From an uncultured Candidatus Actinomarina sp. (lineage in GTDB: Bacteria > Actinomycetota > Acidimicrobiia > Actinomarinales > Actinomarinaceae): 64,000 bases of DNA. The DNA lies in the NCBI GenBank assembly GCA_902578135.1, contig CACHBU010000001.1, positions 125,286-189,285 on the forward strand, read 5' to 3'. Below, one piece after another: positions 3,757 through 63,329 of the stretch. Positions within the stretch are counted from its first letter, which is position 1; each line of letters starts with the position of its first letter. A program made the translations under genes and the position numbers. The notes under the pieces were generated by a model. The model made no database searches, was not told where the DNA came from, and worked only from the letters and a program-made list of their open reading frames with translations.

Positions 3757-4605
3757 ATGACATACTTTAAAAATAAAACAATAATTATGAGCGGAGGCTC
3801 TCGTGGAGTTGGTCTTGAGATTGCAAAAGCGCTTGGCAAAGACGGAGCAAATGTTGCAATTCTAGCGAAAACTACAGAACCACATCCAACACTACCAGGA
3901 ACAATCTTTACAGCTGCAGATGAAATTAAGCAAGTTGGAGGCAATCCACTTCCAATAGTTTGTGATATTAGATTTGAAGATCAAGTAGAGGCAGCTGTTG
4001 AGGAAACAGCAAGTAAATTTGGTGGTATAGATATATGTATCAATAACGCAAGTGCCATACATTTAACTGATACTGTTAATACGCCTATGAAAAGATATGA
4101 CTTGATGCATAACATTAATGTGCGTGGTACTTTTATGCTTAGCCAAAAATGTATACCTCATCTTATTAAAGGAGATAACTCACACATTTTGACGCTTTCA
4201 CCGCCTTTAGATATAGCGAGAAAGTGGTTTGGTATGACTCTTGCTTATACAACTGCAAAGTATGGAATGTCACTTGTTGCACATGGTCTGGCTGAAGAAC
4301 TTGGAAAGCACAATGTTGCATCTAATTGTCTGTGGCCAAGAACTTCACTTGATACCGCAGCTGTAAGAAATGTAATTGGAGAAGAGCTAGTAAAAGGTTC
4401 CAGAAAGCCATCAATATATGCTGATGCCGCATATGCAGTATTAAAAAGAGACTCTTCGTCATGTACCGGTAATTTCTTTTTAGACCAAGATGTACTTGAG
4501 GAAGAAGGCGTTACAGATTTTGATCAGTACGCAATAGACCCAGAGGCAAAGCTAGTATCAGACTTTTTTGTCGATGACAATCCTGATGATTGGATTCAGG
4601 CTTAG
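3757..4605 (+). CDS. short-chain dehydrogenase/reductase, HSDL2-like
   Basis: TIIMSGGSRGVGLEIAKALGKDGANVAILAKT, NNASAI, YTTAKYGMS (Y-x3-K) and a C-terminal FDQYAIDP region; strong resemblance to the hydroxysteroid dehydrogenase-like 2 SDR domain. Confidence 0.8.
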   Translation: MTYFKNKTIIMSGGSRGVGLEIAKALGKDGANVAILAKTTEPHPTLPGTIFTAADEIKQVGGNPLPIVCDIRFEDQVEAAVEETASKFGGIDICINNASAIHLTDTVNTPMKRYDLMHNINVRGTFMLSQKCIPHLIKGDNSHILTLSPPLDIARKWFGMTLAYTTAKYGMSLVAHGLAEELGKHNVASNCLWPRTSLDTAAVRNVIGEELVKGSRKPSIYADAAYAVLKRDSSSCTGNFFLDQDVLEEEGVTDFDQYAIDPEAKLVSDFFVDDNPDDWIQA

Positions 4606-21712: not shown

Positions 21713-21817
21713 TATTCAATATTATCAGGTGGTTTAATAATTACTAAAATTGCTTATTTTTTATCTTTTTTAATAAATTTTTTGCATTAAATTGCCAATA
21801 TGATATATTAATTACAT

Positions 21818-21839
21818 ATCTAAGTAAATATACTTAGAT
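21818..21839. promoter_or_regulatory. 9-4-9 perfect palindrome ATCTAAGTA-AATA-TACTTAGAT upstream of small protein A/dnaK operon; followed by an (ATTAG)x3 tandem at 21851-21865
   Basis: Read directly; the position ~40-60 nt upstream of the 21877 start suggests an operator (HAIR-like layout but a different sequence). Confidence 0.4.
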
Positions 21840-21876
21840 TATATATCAAAATTAGATTAGATTAGGAAGGTTAAGA

Positions 21877-22077
21877 ATGAGTGGAACATTAACAGCATCA
21901 CAAGTTAAGCCAGGTGTTAGAAGATCAAAAAAATACACCACTGGTAGAGTTTGCGCATTTGAAACTTGTGAGACCGTAATTAGCGTTTATAACAAAAAGA
22001 AATTTTGTTTTCTACATGCTCCTATCTCCTATCCAAGGGTAAGAGGTCATTTGCCAAGAGAACAAGAACCAATTTAA
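21877..22077 (+). CDS. small Cys3His protein, paralog A (unknown function), first gene of dnaK operon
   Basis: 66 aa; RBS AGGAAGG; roughly half of positions identical to the ORF at 46098-46292, with shared blocks GRVC, YNK, CF-HAP, YPRVRG; no terminator before dnaK (27-nt gap). Confidence 0.6.
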   Translation: MSGTLTASQVKPGVRRSKKYTTGRVCAFETCETVISVYNKKKFCFLHAPISYPRVRGHLPREQEPI

Positions 22078-22104: not shown

Positions 22105-23913
22105 ATGGGTAAAGCTGTAGGAATAGATTTGGGAACAACAAACAGTGTTGTAGCAGTTTTAGAAGGTGGAGAGCCTTCTGTTATTGCAAATGCTGAAGGA
22201 AATAGAACAACCCCTTCTATTGTTGCATTTAAATCTGAAGAAGTGCTTGTAGGAGAGCTTGCAAAAAGACAGGCTATCACCAATCCCGACAATACAGTAA
22301 GGTCTATTAAAAGACATATTGGGACTGATTGGAAAGAAAAATTTGAAGATAAAGAGTACACACCTCAAGAGATTTCTGCACGAATTTTACAAAAATTAAA
22401 GCGAGACGCTGAAGCTTACTTGGGAGATGATGTTACCGAGGCCGTAATTACAGTACCAGCCTATTTTAATGATGCAGAAAGGCAAGCAACAAAGGAAGCT
22501 GGACAAATTGCTGGTCTGAATGTCCTAAGAATAATTAATGAACCAACAGCTGCATCATTAGCTTATGGTCTAGAAAATAATGAAGATCAAAAAATTTTAG
22601 TATTTGACTTAGGTGGAGGTACTTTTGATGTTTCAATACTTGAAATCTCAGAAGGTGTGTTTGAAGTTAAATCTACTTCTGGCGACTCAAAACTTGGCGG
22701 GGATGATTGGGATCAACGAGTTATGGACTGGTTGATAGATAAGTTCAAATCATCCACAGGGATAGATTTGTCAAAAGATAAAATGGCAGTTCAAAGAATT
22801 CAAGAAGGTGCTGAAAAAGCCAAAATTGAACTATCTTCAACAAGTGAAACAGAAATAAATTTACCTTTTATTACCGCAAACGATGCTGGGCCTCAACACT
22901 TGCTTGAAAAATTAAGTAGATCAGAATTTGAAAAAATAACAGCTGACTTAGTTGAACGAACTAAAGCACCTGTAGAGAACGCATTGTCTGATGCAGGTAT
23001 GCAATATTCTGATATTGATCACATTATTTTAGTTGGTGGCTCAACACGTATGCCATCTGTTCAACAACTTGTAAAAACTTTAACTGGAAAAGATCCACAT
23101 AAGGGAGTTAACCCAGACGAAGTTGTAGCCTCAGGAGCAGCTATTCAAGCTGGTGTCCTTAAAGGTGATGTAAAAGATGTTCTTTTGTTAGACGTTACAC
23201 CTCTTACTTTAGGTGTTGAAACAAAAGGTGGAATAATGACAAAAATGATTGAGAGAAATACAACTATTCCTACCAAACGATCAGAGGTTTTCAGCACAGC
23301 AGAAAATAATCAAACTCAAGTTGAAATTCATATTTTGCAAGGTGAAAGGGAAATGGCAGCTGGCAATAAATCCCTAGGTAGATTCACCCTTACAGATATT
23401 CCTGCTGCGATGGCTGGGACTCCACAAATTGAAGTAACGTTTGATATTGATGCCAATGGAATCGTAAATGTTAATGCCAAAGATCTTGGTACTGGAAAAG
23501 AACAAGCTATAACTATTACTGGTGGAACTGCACTTGAAGATGATGAAATCGACAGAATGATAAAAGATGCTGAACAACATGCCAATGAAGATGCTAAAAA
23601 GAAAGAGCTTGTTGAAACAAGAAATATGGCAGAAGGTATGGTTACCTCGACTGAAAAAATGCTCGATGAAAATAAAGATAAAGCTACCGAAGAAGAAGTT
23701 GCAGCAATCACTGATGCAAATGATAAATTAAAAAAACTCCTTGAAAACGAAGATTTATCTGTAGATGATCTAAAAAATGGAATTGATGAGTTAGCTAAAG
23801 CAAGTCAGTCTTTTGCAGAAAAACTTTACGCTGAAGCCCAAAACGATGCACCAGACTCACCTGATGATGTTTCAGAAGATGTAGTCGAAGGTGAAGTTGT
23901 AGAGGATGAATAA
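22105..23913 (+). CDS. dnaK: molecular chaperone DnaK (Hsp70)
   Basis: [16 protein letters not shown], complete Hsp70 architecture, 602 aa. Confidence 0.97.
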
Positions 23914-24397
23914 GGAAGAACCCTCTATTGATGAAGTAGACAAAACTTCAGATACAGCAGTTAATGAAAAATCTGAAGAATCAACTGTCTCTCTGTCACA
24001 ATACGAAAAAATAAAAGACGACTATTTAAGACTTGCTGCTGATTTTGACAATTACAAAAAAAGAGCTGAAAAAGAGAAAGAAAACATTGGAGCTGCTTCA
24101 GTAGCTTACTTCGTTAATGCTATTTTTCCACTCATTGATAATTTTGAAATGGCTATGGCGCAAGAAAAAGTAGCTAAAGAAGTAGAAGCACTTAATAGTA
24201 TACTTACCTCAGTTCTCCAGAACTTACAAGTTGAAGAAGTAGGAGAAATTGGAGAAAATTTTGATCCATCTCTACATGAAGCTGTTGAACATTCTGGTGA
24301 AGGTGATTCTCAGATAATCGATGCGGTTTTACGCAAAGGATATCTATTTCAGGGTAGTTTGATTCGCCCTGCAATGGTAAAAGTGAAAAGTGAGTAG
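23906..24397 (+). CDS. grpE: nucleotide exchange factor GrpE
   Basis: 163 aa; [16 protein letters not shown] is the GrpE signature; overlaps the dnaK stop. Confidence 0.9.
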
Positions 24398-25475
24398 AGA
24401 CTGGTTAGACAAAGACTTTTACGCCACCCTGGGCGTAACAAAAGAGGCAAGTACTGAAGAAATAAAAAAAGCGTATAAGAAGCTTGCAAGAGAAAATCAT
24501 CCAGACTTAAACCCAGGAGATACTGAAGCTGAAAAAAAATTCAAAGAAATTTCAGAAGCTAGCTCGGTTCTCGGTGATGAAAAGAAAAGACAAGAGTATG
24601 ACCAGGTTCGTGCAATGGGTGCTTCAGGGTTTGGAGGATTTGGCGGACAAGGGTTTAATGTAGAGGATTTTGGTGATTTATTTGGAAATCTCGGAGATAT
24701 ATTTGGATTCGGAGGTGCTGGGGGAAGAAGAAAAGGCCAGACTTATCAAACAAATATTAATATATCTTTTAATGATGCGGCTTCAGGAGTAGAAAGTGTA
24801 GTTCCTCTCAGAAAGGAAGTAGTTTGTTCTTACTGTAAAGGAACCGGAGCAGATAAAGGTGAAGCTTTCCATAGGTGTAATATTTGTAATGGAAGTGGAC
24901 AGACAGCTTCAAATCAAGGATTTTTTTCTTTTGCTCAAACATGTTCAGCTTGCAAAGGGCAGGGAAATATTATTGATAAAGCGTGTAAAACTTGTAGAAG
25001 TTCTGGCTCTGTAATAGAGAATGAGTCAATAAAAGTAAAAGTTCCTGCCGGAGTAGATAATGGTACAGTTATTAGATTACGGGGAAGAGGCGGTCCTGGT
25101 GATGCAGGCGCACCAGATGGAGATTTATTAGTTCAAGTTGCCGTTGAACCACACAAATTCTTTAGAAGAAACAATAGCGATCTTATTCTAGAAATTCCTT
25201 TACTATTTACAGAGGCAGCTCTTGGTGCAAGTGTAAAGATACCAACGCTTAAGAAATCAGTAACATTAAAAATTCCTGCGGGTACTCCAAGTGGAAAAAC
25301 TTTCAAAATAAAAGGTGAGGGAATTGCTCCACAAGGTAGAAGGCCAGGAGATTTATTTATAAAAGTTTTCATAACCCCTCCAACAAATTTATCAAGATCT
25401 GCAAAAAAACATTTGGAAAACTATAGAGATCAATTTGAGTCTGGAGACTCTCCGAGGGATTATTTATATGAATAA
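24390..25475 (+). CDS. dnaJ: chaperone DnaJ
   Basis: J-domain (HPD within NHPDLNP), G/F region, four CxxCxGxG zinc-finger repeats; GTG start. Confidence 0.92.
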   Translation: MSRDWLDKDFYATLGVTKEASTEEIKKAYKKLARENHPDLNPGDTEAEKKFKEISEASSVLGDEKKRQEYDQVRAMGASGFGGFGGQGFNVEDFGDLFGNLGDIFGFGGAGGRRKGQTYQTNINISFNDAASGVESVVPLRKEVVCSYCKGTGADKGEAFHRCNICNGSGQTASNQGFFSFAQTCSACKGQGNIIDKACKTCRSSGSVIENESIKVKVPAGVDNGTVIRLRGRGGPGDAGAPDGDLLVQVAVEPHKFFRRNNSDLILEIPLLFTEAALGASVKIPTLKKSVTLKIPAGTPSGKTFKIKGEGIAPQGRRPGDLFIKVFITPPTNLSRSAKKHLENYRDQFESGDSPRDYLYE

Positions 25476-25857
25476 TGAAGACTCGAAAGCAATATATTTT
25501 ATTTCTGTAGCATCAACTCTCTCAGGAATCCATCAACAAACAATAAGAACATACGAACAAAAAGGTTTAATTAAACCGTTTAGAACAGGTGGAGGAACAA
25601 GAAGATATTCACAGGAAGACATAGATAAATTGATTCAGATTCAAAATCTTTCTCAGAGAGGTATAAATTTAGATGGAATAAAAATCATATATGAAATGAA
25701 AGACAAAATAGAAGAATTACAGAGTAAAATAATCTCTTTAGAAGATGAAATGTCTACTCAAAAAGTTGATTCAAGAAATAAAGAACGAGAAATACACAAA
25801 AGTTACAAAAATGAAATTGTTAAAAAAACTAACAAATCAATTAAAAAAACAAATTAA
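25468..25857 (+). CDS. hspR: heat-shock repressor HspR (MerR family)
   Basis: MerR HTH (IYFISVASTLSGIHQQTIRTYEQKGLIKP) + coiled-coil tail; ATG at 25468 overlaps the dnaJ stop; dnaK-grpE-dnaJ-hspR is the actinobacterial order. Confidence 0.85.
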   Translation: MNNEDSKAIYFISVASTLSGIHQQTIRTYEQKGLIKPFRTGGGTRRYSQEDIDKLIQIQNLSQRGINLDGIKIIYEMKDKIEELQSKIISLEDEMSTQKVDSRNKEREIHKSYKNEIVKKTNKSIKKTN

Positions 25858-44133: not shown

Positions 44134-46032
44134 ATGTTTAACTATTCTAAGGCAAACTTAGAGAGCTTGAATAATGATTTGGATAGCACTTTAGAAGAAT
44201 GTAAAAAATTAGTTGAAAACATAAAGTCATCAACAAACGTTAATTTAAATGATTTTAATGATTTAGAAAGTACAGTTTATGACGTTTCAGGAAGGGTTGC
44301 TTTTCTTGGAGATGTACACCCAGAAGAAAAGATTAGAGATTTTGGAAATGAAGCAGATTCTAAAATACAAAATTTTGCACTTGAACTATTTAATGATGAT
44401 GATCTTTACAAAAAATATAATGAAATTGATATTTCAGATGCAGATAAAGAGAGTATTGAGTTTCACAAAGATTTAGGTATAGATTTTAAAAATGCTGGTC
44501 ATGGTTTGTCAGATGAAAACAGAAATAGGTTAATAGAAATTGATAAAAGGCTTATAGAGCTTGGTATCGCTTTTTCAGAAAATATAGCAAAAGATAAAAC
44601 AGAGCTTAAATTTTCAGAGGTTGAATTACGCGGTTTAAGCAAAAATGAACTTAACAACTTAAAAAAAGATGAAGAAAAATTTATTATTACAATGGCATAT
44701 CCTGATGTAAATGCAATATCTGAGAACTGTAATGTCAGGAACACAAGAGAAATAGTTTGGAAAGCTTTTAATAATCGGGCTGTAGAAAATAATATTCCAA
44801 TCCTTAAAGAAGCTGTTTTGCTAAGAAATGAAAAATCTAAATTGTTTGGATTTGAAACATGGGCTGAATATAGATTGCAAAACAGAATGGCAAAAAATCC
44901 AAAAAATGTTGATGCTATGTATAAAGATTTAATTCCTAAGTTACAAAAAGCTGCTGAGAAAGAAAAAAAAGACCTTGTAATAGATGATATTGAAATTAAT
45001 GATATCTCACCATGGGATATTCGATACTTTATTTCATCAAAAAGAAGCAAAACTAGCAATATAGAAAATAGTGAACTAAAAAAATATTTTTTTATTCATG
45101 ATGTAAAAAATGAAATGTTCAAAGTTTGTGAAGAAGTTTTTGATTTAGAAATTAAGTCAGAATCAAATGAAACTGCGTGGCATGAAGATGTTGAACTTTG
45201 GTCTTTGTGGGAAAAAAATGGTGAGCAACTAGCTTACTTTTATTTAGACCTCTATCCAAGAGAAGGAAAGTTTACCCATGCAGCAGTATTTGATATTTCT
45301 TCTGGTGGTTCCGAAAGGCAAGAGCTACCAGTATGTTCAATGGTCGCAAATTTTCCAAATCCTAATACAGGAGATGGACTTATGACTTTTGATGAAGTTG
45401 AAACCTTGTTTCATGAATTTGGTCATGTCTTACATAATGGAATTGGTAAATCAAAATATACAAGGTTTGTGGGTGCAAATTGTGAGTGGGATTTTGTGGA
45501 AGCTCCTAGTCAGATTATGGAGCACTGGGTTTGGAAAGTAGAGTGCTTAAAAAGGATTTCAAAACATATTGAAACTTCAGAACCATTGTCTGAACAACTA
45601 TGTAAAAAGCTAAACGAATCAAAAAACATTGGAGTTAGTTTGTTGGCATTAAGGCAAGTATCTTTTGGACTTGCTGATCAACATATGCATGGTGAGAATT
45701 TCAATGATGACCTTTTACAAATCGAACAAGCTTCTCAGTTAGTAACTAATATCACCTACCCCAAAGATACAAATCATTTGGCAGCATTTGGTCATTTACT
45801 TGGTGGATATGATGCTGCTTACTATGGATACTTATGGGCAGAAATTATTGGTGATGACTTGTTCAGCAGATTTGAAAATGAAGGAGTGCTTTCAAATTCA
45901 GTAGGTGTTGATTACAAAAATAAGATTCTCAAGCCCGGAGGTACTATTCCTGCAGAAAATATGGTGCAAAGCTTCCTAGGTAGAAAGTGGGATGATGAAG
46001 CTTTTTTATTTCAAAAGAACTTGCTTATTTAA
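44134..46032 (+). CDS. M3 family metallopeptidase (oligopeptidase A / peptidyl-dipeptidase Dcp-like)
   Basis: HEFGHVLHN zinc motif, 632 aa, thimet-oligopeptidase-like architecture; AAGGAGG RBS. Confidence 0.8.
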   Translation: MFNYSKANLESLNNDLDSTLEECKKLVENIKSSTNVNLNDFNDLESTVYDVSGRVAFLGDVHPEEKIRDFGNEADSKIQNFALELFNDDDLYKKYNEIDISDADKESIEFHKDLGIDFKNAGHGLSDENRNRLIEIDKRLIELGIAFSENIAKDKTELKFSEVELRGLSKNELNNLKKDEEKFIITMAYPDVNAISENCNVRNTREIVWKAFNNRAVENNIPILKEAVLLRNEKSKLFGFETWAEYRLQNRMAKNPKNVDAMYKDLIPKLQKAAEKEKKDLVIDDIEINDISPWDIRYFISSKRSKTSNIENSELKKYFFIHDVKNEMFKVCEEVFDLEIKSESNETAWHEDVELWSLWEKNGEQLAYFYLDLYPREGKFTHAAVFDISSGGSERQELPVCSMVANFPNPNTGDGLMTFDEVETLFHEFGHVLHNGIGKSKYTRFVGANCEWDFVEAPSQIMEHWVWKVECLKRISKHIETSEPLSEQLCKKLNESKNIGVSLLALRQVSFGLADQHMHGENFNDDLLQIEQASQLVTNITYPKDTNHLAAFGHLLGGYDAAYYGYLWAEIIGDDLFSRFENEGVLSNSVGVDYKNKILKPGGTIPAENMVQSFLGRKWDDEAFLFQKNLLI

Positions 46033-46061: not shown

Positions 46062-46079
46062 TTGTGAATATATTCACAA
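46062..46079. promoter_or_regulatory. perfect 18-bp palindrome TTGTGAATATATTCACAA = CRP/GlxR-type TGTGA-N6-TCACA site
   Basis: Read directly; centre ~28 bp upstream of the 46098 start codon. Confidence 0.5.
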
Positions 46080-46097: not shown

Positions 46098-46292
46098 ATG
46101 ACAGACGGATTAAAAGCGAGTCAAATAAAGGGCGGAATTAGGCCATCAAAGAGTTTTGACCAGGGCAGAGTGTGCAAAGATGAATCTTGTAGTACTCAAT
46201 TAAGTATTTATAACAAAAGAGATCACTGCTTCAATCATGCTCCTGTGAAATATCCTAGAGTTAGAGGCAGAATTCTACAAGAAACTGCTTAA
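46098..46292 (+). CDS. small Cys3His protein, paralog B (unknown function), upstream of copZ-copA
   Basis: 64 aa; aligns along its full length with paralog A (GRVC, YNK, CF-HAP, YPRVRG blocks). Confidence 0.6.
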   Translation: MTDGLKASQIKGGIRPSKSFDQGRVCKDESCSTQLSIYNKRDHCFNHAPVKYPRVRGRILQETA

Positions 46293-46311: not shown

Positions 46312-46367
46312 GAAATCTCCCCCAAGAGATTTCTTATAAGCCCCTAAGAAATTAGGGGCTTATTTAT
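46312..46367 (+). terminator. two tandem hairpins after paralog B; the second is a rho-independent terminator
   Basis: GAAATCTC-CCCCAA-GAGATTTC (46312-46333), then AAGCCCCTAA-GAAA-TTAGGGGCTT followed by ATTTAT (46338-46367). Confidence 0.6.
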
Positions 46368-46386: not shown

Positions 46387-46605
46387 TTGATAATTATGAA
46401 TGTTTTATTTACAGTTCCTGAAATCAGTTGTGGTCATTGTAAGGATACGATTGAATCTACATTAAATAATGTTGAATCAATAGAAAGCGTTTCAGTTGAT
46501 ATTGAGAAAAAATCAGTTGAAGTTATCTCATCTTCTGATTTAGACATGATGAATGTTTCTCAACTGTTAGATGAACAAGGCTACACAGTTGTCCAGTCAG
46601 AATAA
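46387..46605 (+). CDS. copZ: copper chaperone CopZ-like (HMA domain)
   Basis: 72 aa ferredoxin-like HMA fold with an N-terminal CGHC metal-binding pair. Confidence 0.65.
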   Translation: MIIMNVLFTVPEISCGHCKDTIESTLNNVESIESVSVDIEKKSVEVISSSDLDMMNVSQLLDEQGYTVVQSE

Positions 46606-48661
46606 TACTTTAAATTTAGACATCGAAGGCATGACATGTGCTGCATGTGCTGCACGGATAGAACGAGTAATTTCAAAACAAGAAGATGTCTTAGACGTAT
46701 CTGTAAGCTTTCCTTTAAAGTCTGCAATTGTTGACATTAAAAATAATGACGAATTTGATGTTGATAATTTAATTAAAAAAGTAAACACTATTGGCTATAA
46801 GGCAAAAGAAGCAGACAGCCTTAGTTCAGGAAGTAAAGTTAGATTTAAATTTTTAATACCTTTATTTTCATTGTTTCTTACTTACATTCTCAGATTTACA
46901 TTTGAGGCTGGGCTAGATATCTTATCTTATGCAATAGGCACTTTTGTTATCTTGATACTTGGTAGAAATTTTCATATTTCTTCTTTTAAAAAAATTAAGT
47001 TTCTTGATTTTAATATGGATACTCTAATTTCAATCGGTAGCTTGAGTGCGCTTATTATTTCATTGTTACCAAGCACTGTTCTTAGCTCTGATTTATCAAT
47101 CACAAATAATAAAATGTTCCTAGATACCGGAGCTTTCATAGTTTCATTTATCTTAATTGGTAAAGCAATAGAAGATAAGGTTATAGAGGAATCCGTAAAT
47201 GAATCTGAATCAATAAAAAGCAGAATGCCTAAAACCTTAATTGTGGAAAGAGGTGGGGAGCATCTTGAAGTACCTATTAAAGAGGTTACAATTGGTGATT
47301 TATTCAAAGTAAGCCCCGGAGAGATTATTCCTGTTGATGGTGTTGTTTTAGAAGGTTCAACGACTGTTGATGAAAGTTTATTAACTGGAGAGTCAATTCC
47401 TCTAGTTAAAAATCCTGGGGACTTAGTTGTAGGTGGAAGTATAAATTTAGATGGTGCATTAAAGATCTCTGTCCAAGAGTCTTATCAAAAATCTACCTAC
47501 AACATAATTGAAGAATTAATTAGAACGGCTCAAGCAACTAAACCAGAGATTCAAAAATCATTGGACAAAGTAACTCAATACTTCGTTCCAGTTGTTCTTT
47601 TTATTAGTCTTCTAACTTTCCTGTTTAGACTCTTTATAAGCGATTTCACATTATTAGATGCCTTAAAAAATTCAATAGCAGTTTTGGTGATTGCATGTCC
47701 TTGTGCATTAGGCTTAGCAACTCCAATAGTTTTGTTTAAGACTGCAACTCTCAGTAAAAAACAGGGATACTTATTCAAAAATTTTGATATTTTGCAAAAA
47801 TTTGGTGATATAAATACTCTTATTTTTGATAAAACAGGTACCCTTTCTTCTGGTATTTTTAAAATATCAAAGATCGACAATAATACATCTCTAACGGAAA
47901 ATACAATTTTACAAATTATTGCAAGTCTTGAAAGCTATTCTCAGCATCCGATTGCAAGAAGTATTGTTTATGAAGCAGAATTACGAGATTTGAAATTGCT
48001 TAAAGCTGATAATGTCAAGGAAGTTCCTGGCTTAGGGATACAAGGTATAGTTGATGAGAAAAAAGTTTTAATTGAAAAAAATGAAGACTCTAACGAGTCT
48101 TCAATCATTGTTAAAATTGACGAGCAAAAAATTGATCTCTACTTAGAAGAAGAGGTATCCGTATCGTCAAATTTCTTAAATATACTGAAAAATGAAAAAG
48201 AAATAATTATTCTCTCAGGAGATAAAGAAGTAAATGTTGAAAAGTTTGCTAAAAGTATTGGGGTGGACAAATATCATTCAAATAAATCTCCAGAAGAAAA
48301 GTTAGACTTTATTAAAAATAAACAACTAGAAGAAAAAGTTATTTATGTTGGAGATGGAGTAAATGATTCCCCTTCAATAAAACAAGCGGATATTGGTATA
48401 ACTACATCTAGTAGTAGTCAAATAGCACAAGTAGCTGGTGATATTTTAATTCACAAGGGCGGTTTAGATACAATTTCTGAAATTTTTAAATTATCAAAAA
48501 AATCTAAAAGTAGAATTTATCAAAATCTATTCCTTGCTTTTGTTTACAACACCTCAATGATTCCATTGGCTGTGTCTGGGGTAATTACTCCAAATTTAGC
48601 AGCTTTGGCCATGGCACTATCAAGCATTTCAGTAGTTTTGAATTCATCAAGAAAACTATAA
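46571..48661 (+). CDS. copA: copper-translocating P1B-type ATPase
   Basis: N-terminal HMA GMTCAACAARIE; TM CPC motif (IACPCALGLATP); DKTGTLS phosphorylation site; GDGVNDSP. Confidence 0.9.
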   Translation: MNKATQLSSQNNTLNLDIEGMTCAACAARIERVISKQEDVLDVSVSFPLKSAIVDIKNNDEFDVDNLIKKVNTIGYKAKEADSLSSGSKVRFKFLIPLFSLFLTYILRFTFEAGLDILSYAIGTFVILILGRNFHISSFKKIKFLDFNMDTLISIGSLSALIISLLPSTVLSSDLSITNNKMFLDTGAFIVSFILIGKAIEDKVIEESVNESESIKSRMPKTLIVERGGEHLEVPIKEVTIGDLFKVSPGEIIPVDGVVLEGSTTVDESLLTGESIPLVKNPGDLVVGGSINLDGALKISVQESYQKSTYNIIEELIRTAQATKPEIQKSLDKVTQYFVPVVLFISLLTFLFRLFISDFTLLDALKNSIAVLVIACPCALGLATPIVLFKTATLSKKQGYLFKNFDILQKFGDINTLIFDKTGTLSSGIFKISKIDNNTSLTENTILQIIASLESYSQHPIARSIVYEAELRDLKLLKADNVKEVPGLGIQGIVDEKKVLIEKNEDSNESSIIVKIDEQKIDLYLEEEVSVSSNFLNILKNEKEIIILSGDKEVNVEKFAKSIGVDKYHSNKSPEEKLDFIKNKQLEEKVIYVGDGVNDSPSIKQADIGITTSSSSQIAQVAGDILIHKGGLDTISEIFKLSKKSKSRIYQNLFLAFVYNTSMIPLAVSGVITPNLAALAMALSSISVVLNSSRKL

Positions 48662-48704: not shown

Positions 48705-49553
48705 ATGGAAGATGTAGTTTGGTATAGAAAGCCACTTTTATCAGAACCTGTAGCAATACTTGCCTTTGAAGGGTGGAGTGATGCAGGCAATACAGCTACT
48801 GGATGTGTTGAAAATTTAAGCTGCACATATGACGTAGATCCTTTTGCTGAGCTAGATTCCGATTCTTACTATAACTATCAAATGAGAAGGCCAATTGTTG
48901 AGGTTAAAGACTTTGGTGAAAGAAACTTTCATTGGCCTCAAACTTCTTTCTATTCAATTGAGGATTACAAACTCAAAAGTGATCTAATTTTGGTATTCGG
49001 AGAAGAGCCATCAATGAGATGGAAAGAATATTCAAAAAATATAACAGAAACCCTTTTAGAGCTAGGTGTCAAAAAAGCTGTTACCTTAGGAGCTTTTTTT
49101 GGACAAGTAGCACATACTCTTCCTGTTCCAATTTTCGGCGTTAGTGGAGATCCTACATTTCACTCTCGCTTTAATGTTCTCAATCCTAATTACTCAGGAC
49201 CAACAGGCATAACAAGTGTTGTTGGACAATCTTTAAGAGATAATGGAATTGAGACTTCTGGTCTTTGGGCTGCTGTTCCGCATTACTTAAGTAGTGGTGG
49301 ATACCCTAAAGGAATGAGCGCACTTTTAAACAAAACTTCTGAGATATTAAAAATTGATATTGATGACTCTGGCATACAAAGTGAAGGTCAGCAGTTTGAA
49401 CTGAAAATAAGTAAAGCTATGGAGAACTCTCAAGACCTAGCTGACTATGTTTCTAAGCTTGAGGAAGCCGAAGTTAGTATTGAAGACAACTTCTCTGAAG
49501 ACAATTTAGTCCAGCAGATTGAAGACTTTTTAAATGAAGAGAGAGAACTCTAG
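48705..49553 (+). CDS. PAC2 (proteasome assembly chaperone 2-like) family protein
   Basis: The N-terminal AILAFEGWSDAGNTATG motif is characteristic of the actinobacterial PAC2 family. Confidence 0.65.
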   Translation: MEDVVWYRKPLLSEPVAILAFEGWSDAGNTATGCVENLSCTYDVDPFAELDSDSYYNYQMRRPIVEVKDFGERNFHWPQTSFYSIEDYKLKSDLILVFGEEPSMRWKEYSKNITETLLELGVKKAVTLGAFFGQVAHTLPVPIFGVSGDPTFHSRFNVLNPNYSGPTGITSVVGQSLRDNGIETSGLWAAVPHYLSSGGYPKGMSALLNKTSEILKIDIDDSGIQSEGQQFELKISKAMENSQDLADYVSKLEEAEVSIEDNFSEDNLVQQIEDFLNEEREL

Positions 49554-62907: not shown

Positions 62908-62943
62908 TAAAAATTTATCATATTTATTTTGTAATAACTAGAG

Positions 62944-63017
62944 CACGCCCGGAGGGAGTCGAACCCCCAACCTTCTGATCCGTAGTCAGATGCTCTATCC
63001 AGTTAAGCTACGGGCGC
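62944..63017 (-). tRNA. tRNA-Arg(ACG)
   Basis: The reverse complement folds as a cloverleaf: acceptor GCGCCCG/CGGGCGU, anticodon loop CUACGGA, T-loop GGGGGUUCGACUCCCUC; no encoded CCA. Confidence 0.85.
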
Positions 63018-63021
63018 TTTG

Positions 63022-63108
63022 CGGAGAGGGAGGGATTCGAACCCTCGAGGGAATTGCTTCCCCACTCGCTTAGCAGGCGAGCACTTTAGGCCACTCAGTC
63101 ACCTCTCC
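63022..63108 (-). tRNA. tRNA-Ser(GCU)
   Basis: RC GGAGAGGUGACUGAGUGG...CUCGC-CUGCUAA-GCGAG...long variable arm...GGGUUCGAAUCCCUC; class II tRNA. Confidence 0.85.
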
Positions 63109-63115
63109 AAGTCAG

Positions 63116-63201
63116 CGGAGGGAGTGGGATTCGAACCCACGGTATGGAATACATACAATAGTTTTCAAGACTATCGCCTTCGTCCGCTCGGCCATCCCTC
63201 C
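63116..63201 (-). tRNA. tRNA-Ser(UGA)
   Basis: RC GGAGGGAUGGCCGAGCGGACGAAGGCGAUAGUCUUGAAAACUAU...; closely resembles E. coli tRNA-Ser(UGA) through the D and anticodon arms; anticodon UGA (reads UCN), not UCA. Confidence 0.85.
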
Positions 63202-63215
63202 AGATAGTTTTTACG

Positions 63216-63303
63216 CGGAGGGAGAGGGATTCGAACCCTCGAAGGGGATAAACCCTTACACGCTTTCCAAGCGTGCGCACTAGGCCAGACTATGCGATCC
63301 CTC
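63216..63303 (-). tRNA. tRNA-Ser(GGA)
   Basis: RC GGAGGGAUCGCAUAGUCUGGCC...ACGC-UUGGAAA-GCGU...long variable arm...GGGUUCGAAUCCCUC. Confidence 0.85.
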
Positions 63304-63329
63304 CGAATAAACCTGAGATTCTATTTTAG

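Follow-up and report, generated by a model that had tools for sequence, protein, structure and literature searches.

A 64,000-nucleotide stretch of the genome of an uncultured Candidatus Actinomarina sp. (GenBank contig CACHBU010000001.1, forward-strand positions 125,286 to 189,285; the window in what follows, numbered from its first letter) encodes two small, highly basic paralogs, X1 and X2, that share three cysteines and one histidine in fixed spacing. The family to which they belong, labeled X here, is on the evidence of its sequences an undescribed, large family of zinc-finger-type proteins of about 65 residues that is specific to the class Acidimicrobiia and its phages. X1 is the predicted first cistron of the dnaK-grpE-dnaJ-hspR heat-shock operon, and relatives in other Acidimicrobiia lie in the sigH-rsrA locus behind promoters of the SigH type. 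The identity, the family status, and the regulation of X are held with high confidence. The best explanation of its role, to which we assign a probability of roughly 35 to 40%, is that X is a zinc-stabilized, basic, stress-induced adaptor for nucleic acid or the transcription machinery.

The X family and its two members in the window

The two open reading frames (ORFs) had originally been predicted to be full-length paralogs, and this is borne out by their alignment. X1 (ORF1; 21877..22077, + strand; 66 residues) and X2 (ORF2; 46098..46292, + strand; 64 residues), identified from their ORFs, their translations, and their mutual paralogy, align without gaps over 62 residues with 53% identity, 71% positives, and an E-value of 4e-26. 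Both carry C-x4-C-x12-C-x2-H, basic tails, and an invariant P-R-x-R-G, with isoelectric points (pI) of 9.95 and 9.66 and net charges of +8 and +6 for X1 and X2, respectively. A strong Shine-Dalgarno sequence precedes each gene; that of X1, AGGAAGG at 21864..21870 (+), was read directly and lies 6 nt before the ATG. The window DNA is AT-rich, and a degenerate DNA pattern back-translated from the family matches it only twice, at X1 and X2, with 0 matches expected in shuffles. The nearest database proteins to the two ORFs bear the name "hypothetical protein [Candidatus Actinomarina]".

The original prediction did not recognize the family, and database and profile searches agree. A profile search covering 1.84 billion representatives clustered at 50% identity returned, at E<=1e-3, 946 representative clusters, with lengths of 60-80 residues in nearly every case. 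A second profile search, against a larger collection, returned 388 proteins, among which the only name was "hypothetical protein", from Acidimicrobiia or from Actinomycetota metagenome-assembled genomes (MAGs), and word-indexed searches with X1 and X2 found close marine relatives only. Neither X1 nor X2 has a match in Pfam, NCBIfam, or the PDB sequences, and searches of Pfam, NCBIfam, PHROGs, and the PDB sequences with single proteins and with profiles gave nothing significant. Domains that resemble X in cysteine pattern (CxC6, EsV_1_7_cys, the WRKY19 zinc finger, RAR1 CHORD, and SBP) were non-significant and were rejected as the family, as was phrog_10853 (function not known), which matched only weakly.

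The cysteine and histidine spacing noticed in the two window proteins proves to be a property of the family, kept in 309 of the 310 sequences examined. In a set of 71 diverse members C26, C31, S36, Y38, N39, C44, H47, P53, R54, R56, and G57 never vary, and the consensus anchored on the motif reads R-x-[S]-K...G-R-V-C-x4-C-x-T-x-L-S-x-Y-N-x4-C-x2-H-A-P-x3-P-R-x-R-G. An N-terminal basic arm contains a conserved R-x-[SP]-K, and the invariant S-x-Y-N sits between C-x4-C and C-x2-H. The family medians are a pI of 10.1 and a net charge of +8. From this residue pattern, C-x4-C and C-x2-H presumably form a single metal site, presumably for zinc. For annotators, R-x-C-x4-C-x-T-x-L-S-x-Y-N-x4-C-x2-H-x5-P-R-x-R-G is diagnostic. 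Longer relatives of 100-135 residues (P0093, P0135, P0150, P0165, P0166, P0199, P0208, and P0215; also L140, ~4100-4482, - strand) add a C-x2-C...H...C(-E) module after P-R-x-R-G, which gives the ligand order C3H + C2HC; the added module has no match in Pfam. One of these long forms, P0150, is known from an 842-bp contig only, and one copy was seen in context, on the viral contig L140, upstream of a 460-residue ORF that looks portal-like by eye.

The two are genuine genes, kept by very strong purifying selection. Among Actinomarinales orthologs the ratio of nonsynonymous to synonymous substitution (dN/dS) is 0.02-0.19 for X1 and 0-0.05 for X2, with synonymous sites near saturation in both comparisons; a ratio near 1, or a lack of conservation among relatives, would have refuted the original prediction, and clearly neither is seen. 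The X2 protein is 100% identical in the window and in three further loci (L050, L042, and L133) at synonymous divergences (pS) of 0.33-0.71. Between the window and L050, where X2 is unchanged, identity is 69% for the neighboring M3 peptidase, 60% for CopZ, 52% for CopA, and 79% for the PAC2 protein. X1 is conserved to about the same degree as DnaK. Since X2 is frozen at 100% while its neighbors drift to 52%, and since X1 heads the dnaK operon, X is likely to have an important function.

An AlphaFold model was built from a 71-sequence alignment, with the metal not in the model; its predicted local distance difference test (pLDDT) score is 75.9 overall and 83-85 in the core. A single beta-hairpin (residues 24-25 and 34-35) bears the C-x4-C knuckle, extended arms without regular secondary structure flank it, and the only helix is a 3-residue stretch (residues 61-63). 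The zinc ribbon that had been proposed is a putative fold; the model has one hairpin knuckle and extended arms, with no fold match. Both arms are conserved even though the model leaves them without regular structure, as expected for arms that would fold onto a conserved macromolecule.

Chromosomal slots, operons, and promoters

Comparison of neighboring proteins with references over 131 loci, together with a neighbor-joining tree, sorted the X genes into context classes that coincide with clades of the tree. Class A (47 genes) consists of a SigH-type extracytoplasmic function (ECF) sigma factor, an RsrA-like zinc-containing anti-sigma (ZAS) protein, X, a small membrane/acidic protein, and Zincin_2-tilS-hpt-ftsH; this sigH-rsrA locus is the commonest context of X. 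Its sigma factor scores 259 and 266 bits against the 251.6 cut-off of NCBIfam SigH_actino, and its anti-sigma has antisig_RsrA as best match, slightly under the cut-off. A further 12 loci, such as L120, keep the class A downstream frame without the sigma pair. Class B (36 genes) has an M3 peptidase, X, optionally copZ-copA, and PAC2. Class C (10 genes) has a divergent proC, X, and dnaK-grpE-dnaJ-hspR, and class D (9 genes) has Lnt, X, and a CarH/LitR-like regulator. In other contexts the gene after X encodes an OmpR-type regulator, with its kinase, or a Ser/Thr kinase, or else X is divergent from the gene for a Streptomyces antibiotic regulatory protein (SARP) regulator.

X2 falls within the class B clade and X1 defines class C, which includes named Ca. 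Actinomarina and Actinomarinales genomes; the dnaK linkage is limited to Actinomarinales. X1 and X2 had been read as duplicate copies. They are instead two of at least four old paralog lineages, and a recent local duplication is ruled out, since each copy falls in an old clade of its own whose synteny is conserved. A third Actinomarinales paralog was seen in the OCS155 cluster single-cell genome AG-333-G23 (L053, 1351-1964, - strand), where the X stop codon overlaps the start of an acidic 137-residue ORF, so that the two are translationally coupled, and where X is divergent from a gene for a 504-residue hypothetical protein. The small protein that regularly lies between class A X and Zincin_2 has a signal or transmembrane segment and an acidic stretch, and it belongs to no Pfam or NCBIfam family (L001, 5275-5574; L012, 5235-5576; L120, 2717-3097). 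In the class B locus L022 a MerR/HspR-like regulator about 250 nt downstream of X replaces copZ-copA. Regulators of the MerR family recur beside X, namely HspR, the CarH-like proteins, and the L022 regulator.

As originally noted, X1 lies 27 nt upstream of dnaK without an intervening terminator. Its stop codon is 27 nt before the dnaK ATG (22105), a scan of the window found no terminator-like site between the two, and dnaK, grpE, dnaJ, and hspR (22105..25857, +; called from the ORFs and from Pfam matches in orthologous loci) run in the same direction as X1 with overlapping or short junctions. In 9 other Actinomarinales-type loci an X1 ortholog likewise precedes dnaK, and the window HspR scores 109.6 bits against the cut-off of 105 for NCBIfam NF047375. 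Ahead of X1, a consensus scan detected a promoter-like site, TTTGCA-17-TATATT with a TG upstream of the -10 box (21781..21809, +), that is inferred to function as such; when the class C upstream regions are aligned, TTTGCA/TTGCAT and TATATT-like boxes stand in the same position.

Directly downstream of this site is a perfect inverted repeat, ATCTAAGTA-N4-TACTTAGAT with the core ATCTAAGT-N6-ACTTAGAT (21818..21839), that is unique in the window, with 0.02 expected by chance. Its arms are conserved and its spacer is variable in all class C loci, among them, besides the window, L013, L028, L030, L043, L059, L085, and L135. The HspR-associated inverted repeat (HAIR) of Streptomyces has the consensus CTTGAGT-N7-ACTCAAG (PMC6102357). 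The window core, ATCTAAGT-N6-ACTTAGAT, is similar to it but not equal, since the arms differ and the spacer is 6 nt, not 7. The repeat is a candidate HspR operator, probably a HAIR variant of the Actinomarinales. That X1 lies inside an HspR-controlled dnaK transcript, as had been presumed, is supported by the presence of both the promoter-like site and the repeat upstream of X1 and of neither between X1 and dnaK; by this arrangement X1 is the predicted first cistron of the heat-shock operon.

The SigH-type promoter motif GGAA[CT]-N16-19-GTT was scored upstream of X and compared with random 190-nt windows from the same loci. The motif is found at 41 of 46 class A loci, as opposed to 2.3% of the background windows, and also at 12 of 34 class B loci, at 3 of 5 CarH-linked loci, and at 5 of the 11 loci having the class A downstream frame without the sigma pair. 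Among the class B matches, that of the Actinomarinales locus L042, at -233, is atypical in position and chance-like. The positions of the motif are otherwise consistent, often within the 3' end of the anti-sigma gene. In L001 (4906-4932) and L012 (4896-4922) the SigH-type promoter (GGAACTTTTTGAC...CGTT) was seen within the 3' end of the rsrA-like gene, and L001 has a second SigH-type motif at 4096-4121, upstream of sigH. A promoter within the rsrA-like gene would give X its own sigma-dependent transcript. Given the frequency of the motif upstream of X relative to the 2.3% background, X is a conserved member of a SigH/SigR-type regulon in Acidimicrobiia. The link to stress that was originally suggested from the window thus extends more broadly, to homologs in the sigH-rsrA locus behind promoters of this type.

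X2 had been taken for the first gene of a copZ-copA operon, and with that for a protein with some role in metal efflux. Neither idea is supported. The upstream neighbor of X2 is an M3 peptidase (44134..46032, +; Pfam Peptidase_M3, E 4.8e-112), which most of the 36 class B loci keep in synteny with X. Between them is a perfect CRP/GlxR-type palindrome, TTGTGAATA|TATTCACAA (46062..46079), that conforms to TGTGA-N6-TCACA and ends 18 nt before the X2 ATG. It reads TTGTGAATATATTCACAA, also written TGTGAATATATTCACA, and is the sole perfect TGTGA-N6-TCACA site in the window; across 7 Actinomarinales loci the flanks have diverged, yet the 20-mer CTTGTGAATATATTCACAAA is the same in all. Because its center lies 27 nt before the ATG, the palindrome would overlap the X2 core promoter or 5' leader. 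Two hairpins follow X2 (46312..46363, +; 46312-46333 and 46336-46363), with a fold of -27.8 kcal/mol and a z-score of -4.69, and no shuffle folds equally well. The second has a 12-bp G+C-rich stem followed by UUAUUUAU and is terminator-like, though a simple terminator scan of the + strand did not call it. The hairpins are restricted to the window and its closest relatives, L133 and L042, and are absent in L039, L050, L062, and L093.

Beyond the hairpins are copZ (HMA domain, Pfam match 3e-11) and copA (P-type ATPase), at 46387..48661 (+), assigned from ORFs, Pfam HMA, and synteny, and then a PAC2-family gene (48705..49553, +; Pfam PAC2, E 5e-43), the downstream frame of the class B slot. PAC2 synteny is kept in loci without copZA (L060 and L069); copZA is missing from the slot in L060, L069, and L022, and X is inverted relative to the M3 peptidase and copA in six loci (L009, L025, L100, L102, L125, and L132). 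The conserved class B frame, from comparison of these loci, is M3 peptidase-X-PAC2 and not copZA. Membership of X2 in a copZ-copA operon in the window was rejected in view of the hairpins, the separate operator-like palindrome, and the variable orientation and content of the slot; co-transcription with copZ-copA in the window is unlikely, and X2 is probably a separately controlled gene that merely neighbors them. A role for X in copper handling is likewise unlikely. An Rfam scan of both intergenic regions found no known RNA element. It was also seen that copZ is called from TTG 46387, with ATG 46396 as an alternative start, and that the last 35 nt of copZ (46571-46605) lie within copA, whose ATG is at 46571. 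Elsewhere, the window contains a four-tRNA cluster (62943-63304, - strand; Arg-ACG, Ser-GCT, Ser-TGA, and Ser-GGA).

A scan of species-representative genomes with the degenerate DNA pattern, hand-made by back-translating the invariant residues, returned at least 120 matching stretches, almost all of them in Acidimicrobiia; among the matches listed are Actinomarinales, the OCS155 cluster, and Microthrix. Four contigs were filed under Methanobacteriota, Kiloniellales, and Acidobacteriota MAGs: L062 (NYXO01000052.1), L066 (CAXMPL010000119.1), L046, and L082. They are probably mis-binned, having typical Acidimicrobiia/Actinomarinales X loci with the same synteny. The family pattern also matches 33 viral contigs in IMG/VR. 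None of these has any of the cellular contexts of X; the neighbors are phage genes, encoding portal protein, primase, DnaB-like helicase, replication initiator, Erf, integrase, and HNH endonuclease, and one further member lies inside an island of transposase, methylase, and antitoxin genes. A tblastn search of deposited phage genomes (INPHARED) found no X homolog.

Comparison with known zinc proteins

X shares features with several known zinc proteins, with significant similarity to none of them. The CHORD domain binds two zinc ions; X has four possible ligands only, and no Pfam CHORD match. The zinc-thiolate ZAS anti-sigma proteins RsrA and RshA share locus and regulon with X, and class A X lies directly downstream of an RsrA-like gene, but neither the H-x3-C-x2-C motif nor the helical anti-sigma domain is present in X, and there is no Pfam zf-HC2 match. 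RbpA is a member of the SigR regulon, and X homologs lie behind SigH/SigR-type promoters. RbpA is small, its Streptomyces form has a zinc site of the Cys3His type, and its basic tail is disordered in the free protein (PMC3675491); in being a small actinobacterial protein with such a site and such a tail it is like X. However, its ligand order is C-H-C-C, whereas that of X is C-C-C-H with fixed x4/x12/x2 spacing, and the C-terminal helices with which RbpA contacts sigma are not in X, which ends about 10 residues after P-R-x-R-G. Alignment of the family with S. coelicolor RbpA by hhalign gave a probability of 1% and aligned only 11 N-terminal columns; neither the full X profile nor the N-tail profile retrieved RbpA from the PDB, and there is no Pfam RbpA match. 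A kinship through the N-terminal tail (MADRVLRGSRLG versus MADTLKGNRLRG, hhalign E 0.055) was rejected as chance, as the N-tail profile ranks unrelated SerC proteins higher across the PDB.

A parallel in ligand pattern is zinc finger 1 of the plant SQUAMOSA promoter-binding proteins (SBP), which shares with X a Cys3His C-x4-C...C-x2-H, basic surroundings, and the register R-x-C-x4-C-x3-L-[ST]; the SBP domain also has the C3H + C2HC ligand order of the long X relatives. The spacing is x16 in SBP as opposed to x12 in X, and SBP domains are eukaryotic, about 76 residues long, and have two zinc sites, whereas the window proteins have one. Pfam SBP has no X match at E<=1. The ligand pattern and the R-x-C-x4-C-x3-L-S register of X thus weakly resemble this DNA-binding finger.

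Possible role of X in the stress response

The adaptor reading is built on the regulation of X and on its two arms. X would be produced alongside the regulon of thiol-oxidative and heat stress. As a zinc-stabilized, highly basic adaptor, it would use its two conserved arms to bind the transcription machinery or a nucleic acid, of which DNA is the likeliest, and would thereby modulate gene expression under stress; phages may carry copies that modulate host expression likewise. The extreme conservation of both arms points to a conserved macromolecular partner. Regulators stand repeatedly beside X (SigH/RsrA, HspR, CarH-like, OmpR-type plus kinase, Ser/Thr kinase, and SARP), in what may be an enrichment. 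The high basicity of X, its weak resemblance to the DNA-binding SBP finger, and the SBP-like ligand order of its long relatives are further hints of this mechanism.

Several results weigh against this reading. The family has no significant similarity, in sequence or fold, to DNA-, RNA-, or RNA polymerase-binding proteins. A Foldseek search of the X model against the PDB and BFVD gave nothing at E<0.1, and the family profile against the PDB gave only RAR1 CHORD-II (E 0.65) and the SBP domain (E 1.5), neither significant. Alignment of X by hhalign with four SBP zinc-finger-1 segments does bring all four ligands into register, with a 4-residue gap and P 0.004, but at a probability of 8%. The SigH-type motif is found upstream of X in 0 of 8 class C loci and is not found at X2, so that the stress-sigma link of the window copies would rest on their homology to other lineages. 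A site of three cysteines and one histidine could also be a redox switch or bind an Fe-S cluster, and the proteostasis neighbors (the dnaK operon, M3 peptidase, PAC2, and Zincin_2-tilS-hpt-ftsH) fit an accessory of chaperones or proteases equally well.

A different account, which we consider unlikely, makes X a redox-sensitive zinc-thiolate switch or an accessory of chaperones. In oxidative or heat stress, oxidation of the Cys3His site would free the zinc, and the unfolded basic protein would serve as a holdase or as a partner of the DnaK system or of proteases, on the model of Hsp33, of Ruc (Rv0991c) from mycobacteria, or of Hep1, the escort protein of Hsp70. X1 is predicted to share its operon with dnaK-grpE-dnaJ, homologs occupy the SigH/RsrA thiol-stress locus with its promoter type, other slots adjoin the M3 peptidase, PAC2, and Zincin_2-tilS-hpt-ftsH, and the arms of the model lack regular structure, all of which is in keeping with this account. 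Ruc is a four-Cys zinc ribbon of the FmdB type; X, with C-x4-C and C-x2-H, lacks the two-CxxC pattern of FmdB/Ruc and has no such Pfam match. A precedent for a small actinobacterial zinc-ribbon protein with an unstructured tail is offered by Ruc of M. tuberculosis, described as a redox-regulated chaperone of the heat-shock regulon that is tied to the DnaK system (PMC7448276). The likeness to X lies in small size, in a zinc-binding cysteine site, in the tail, and in the regulon, but X is half as large as Ruc and far more basic, without sequence similarity, and Pfam finds no homology of X to Ruc/FmdB, Hsp33, or DNL zinc fingers. A length of 65 residues with near-invariant arms resembles a specific binder more than a promiscuous holdase. 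In addition, the phage copies lie amid replication and structural genes, not chaperones, and the dnaK linkage is confined to one order.

The size of X, its pI near 10, its extreme constraint (X2 is identical across saturated synonymous divergence), its several paralogs per lineage, its phage-borne copies, and its strong Shine-Dalgarno sequences could also describe a lineage-specific basic zinc protein associated with the ribosome or RNA, with stress paralogs, that phages have copied in the way they have bS21. Cys-rich zinc forms and paralogs exist for several small ribosomal proteins, and marine phages encode ribosomal proteins, which is in favor of this idea. X nevertheless resembles no ribosomal protein family, it occurs in ribosomal-protein operons at 0 of 131 loci, and its SigH-type, HspR-type, and CRP-type sites are atypical for core ribosomal proteins; we regard this reading as distinctly improbable. 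The metal reading of the original prediction, in which X would guard the copZ-copA and dnaK operons as a chaperone or sensor of copper or zinc, is very improbable. Binding of Cu(I) or Zn by a Cys3His site is conceivable, and across Acidimicrobiia many of the 36 class B loci have copZ-copA beside the X2-type gene. Yet in the window terminator-like hairpins separate X2 from copZ, the 6 inversions relative to copA and the three losses of copZA break the association, and the commonest context is sigH-rsrA, not metal genes. X has no M-x-C-x-x-C motif and no Pfam HMA match, as CopZ-like proteins would, and the palindrome upstream of X2 is of the CRP type, which is unlike the known boxes of the copper repressors CsoR or CopY.

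The adaptor reading can be extended to a more specific proposal, doubtful as it stands, in which X is a class-specific effector of the SigH/HspR stress network. This zinc microprotein would dock through its two invariant arms on RNA polymerase, a sigma factor, promoter DNA, or the ribosome, and would reprogram expression in thiol and heat stress. Separate paralogs would answer to separate regulators, and phage copies would hijack the same target.

Ca. Actinomarina and the OCS155 cluster, both within Acidimicrobiia, have genomes of about 1 Mb and rank with the most abundant actinobacteria of the sea. Ca. Actinomarina has been described as very small (PMC5069720). It is of note that so streamlined a genome keeps at least two copies of a 65-residue protein. 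Small zinc-finger proteins induced by stress are familiar as a general kind, but the X family itself is undescribed. With some 950 clusters, a defined regulon, phage homologs, and no name in any annotation pipeline, X is a concrete candidate, open to testing, for a part of actinobacterial stress control that is still missing.

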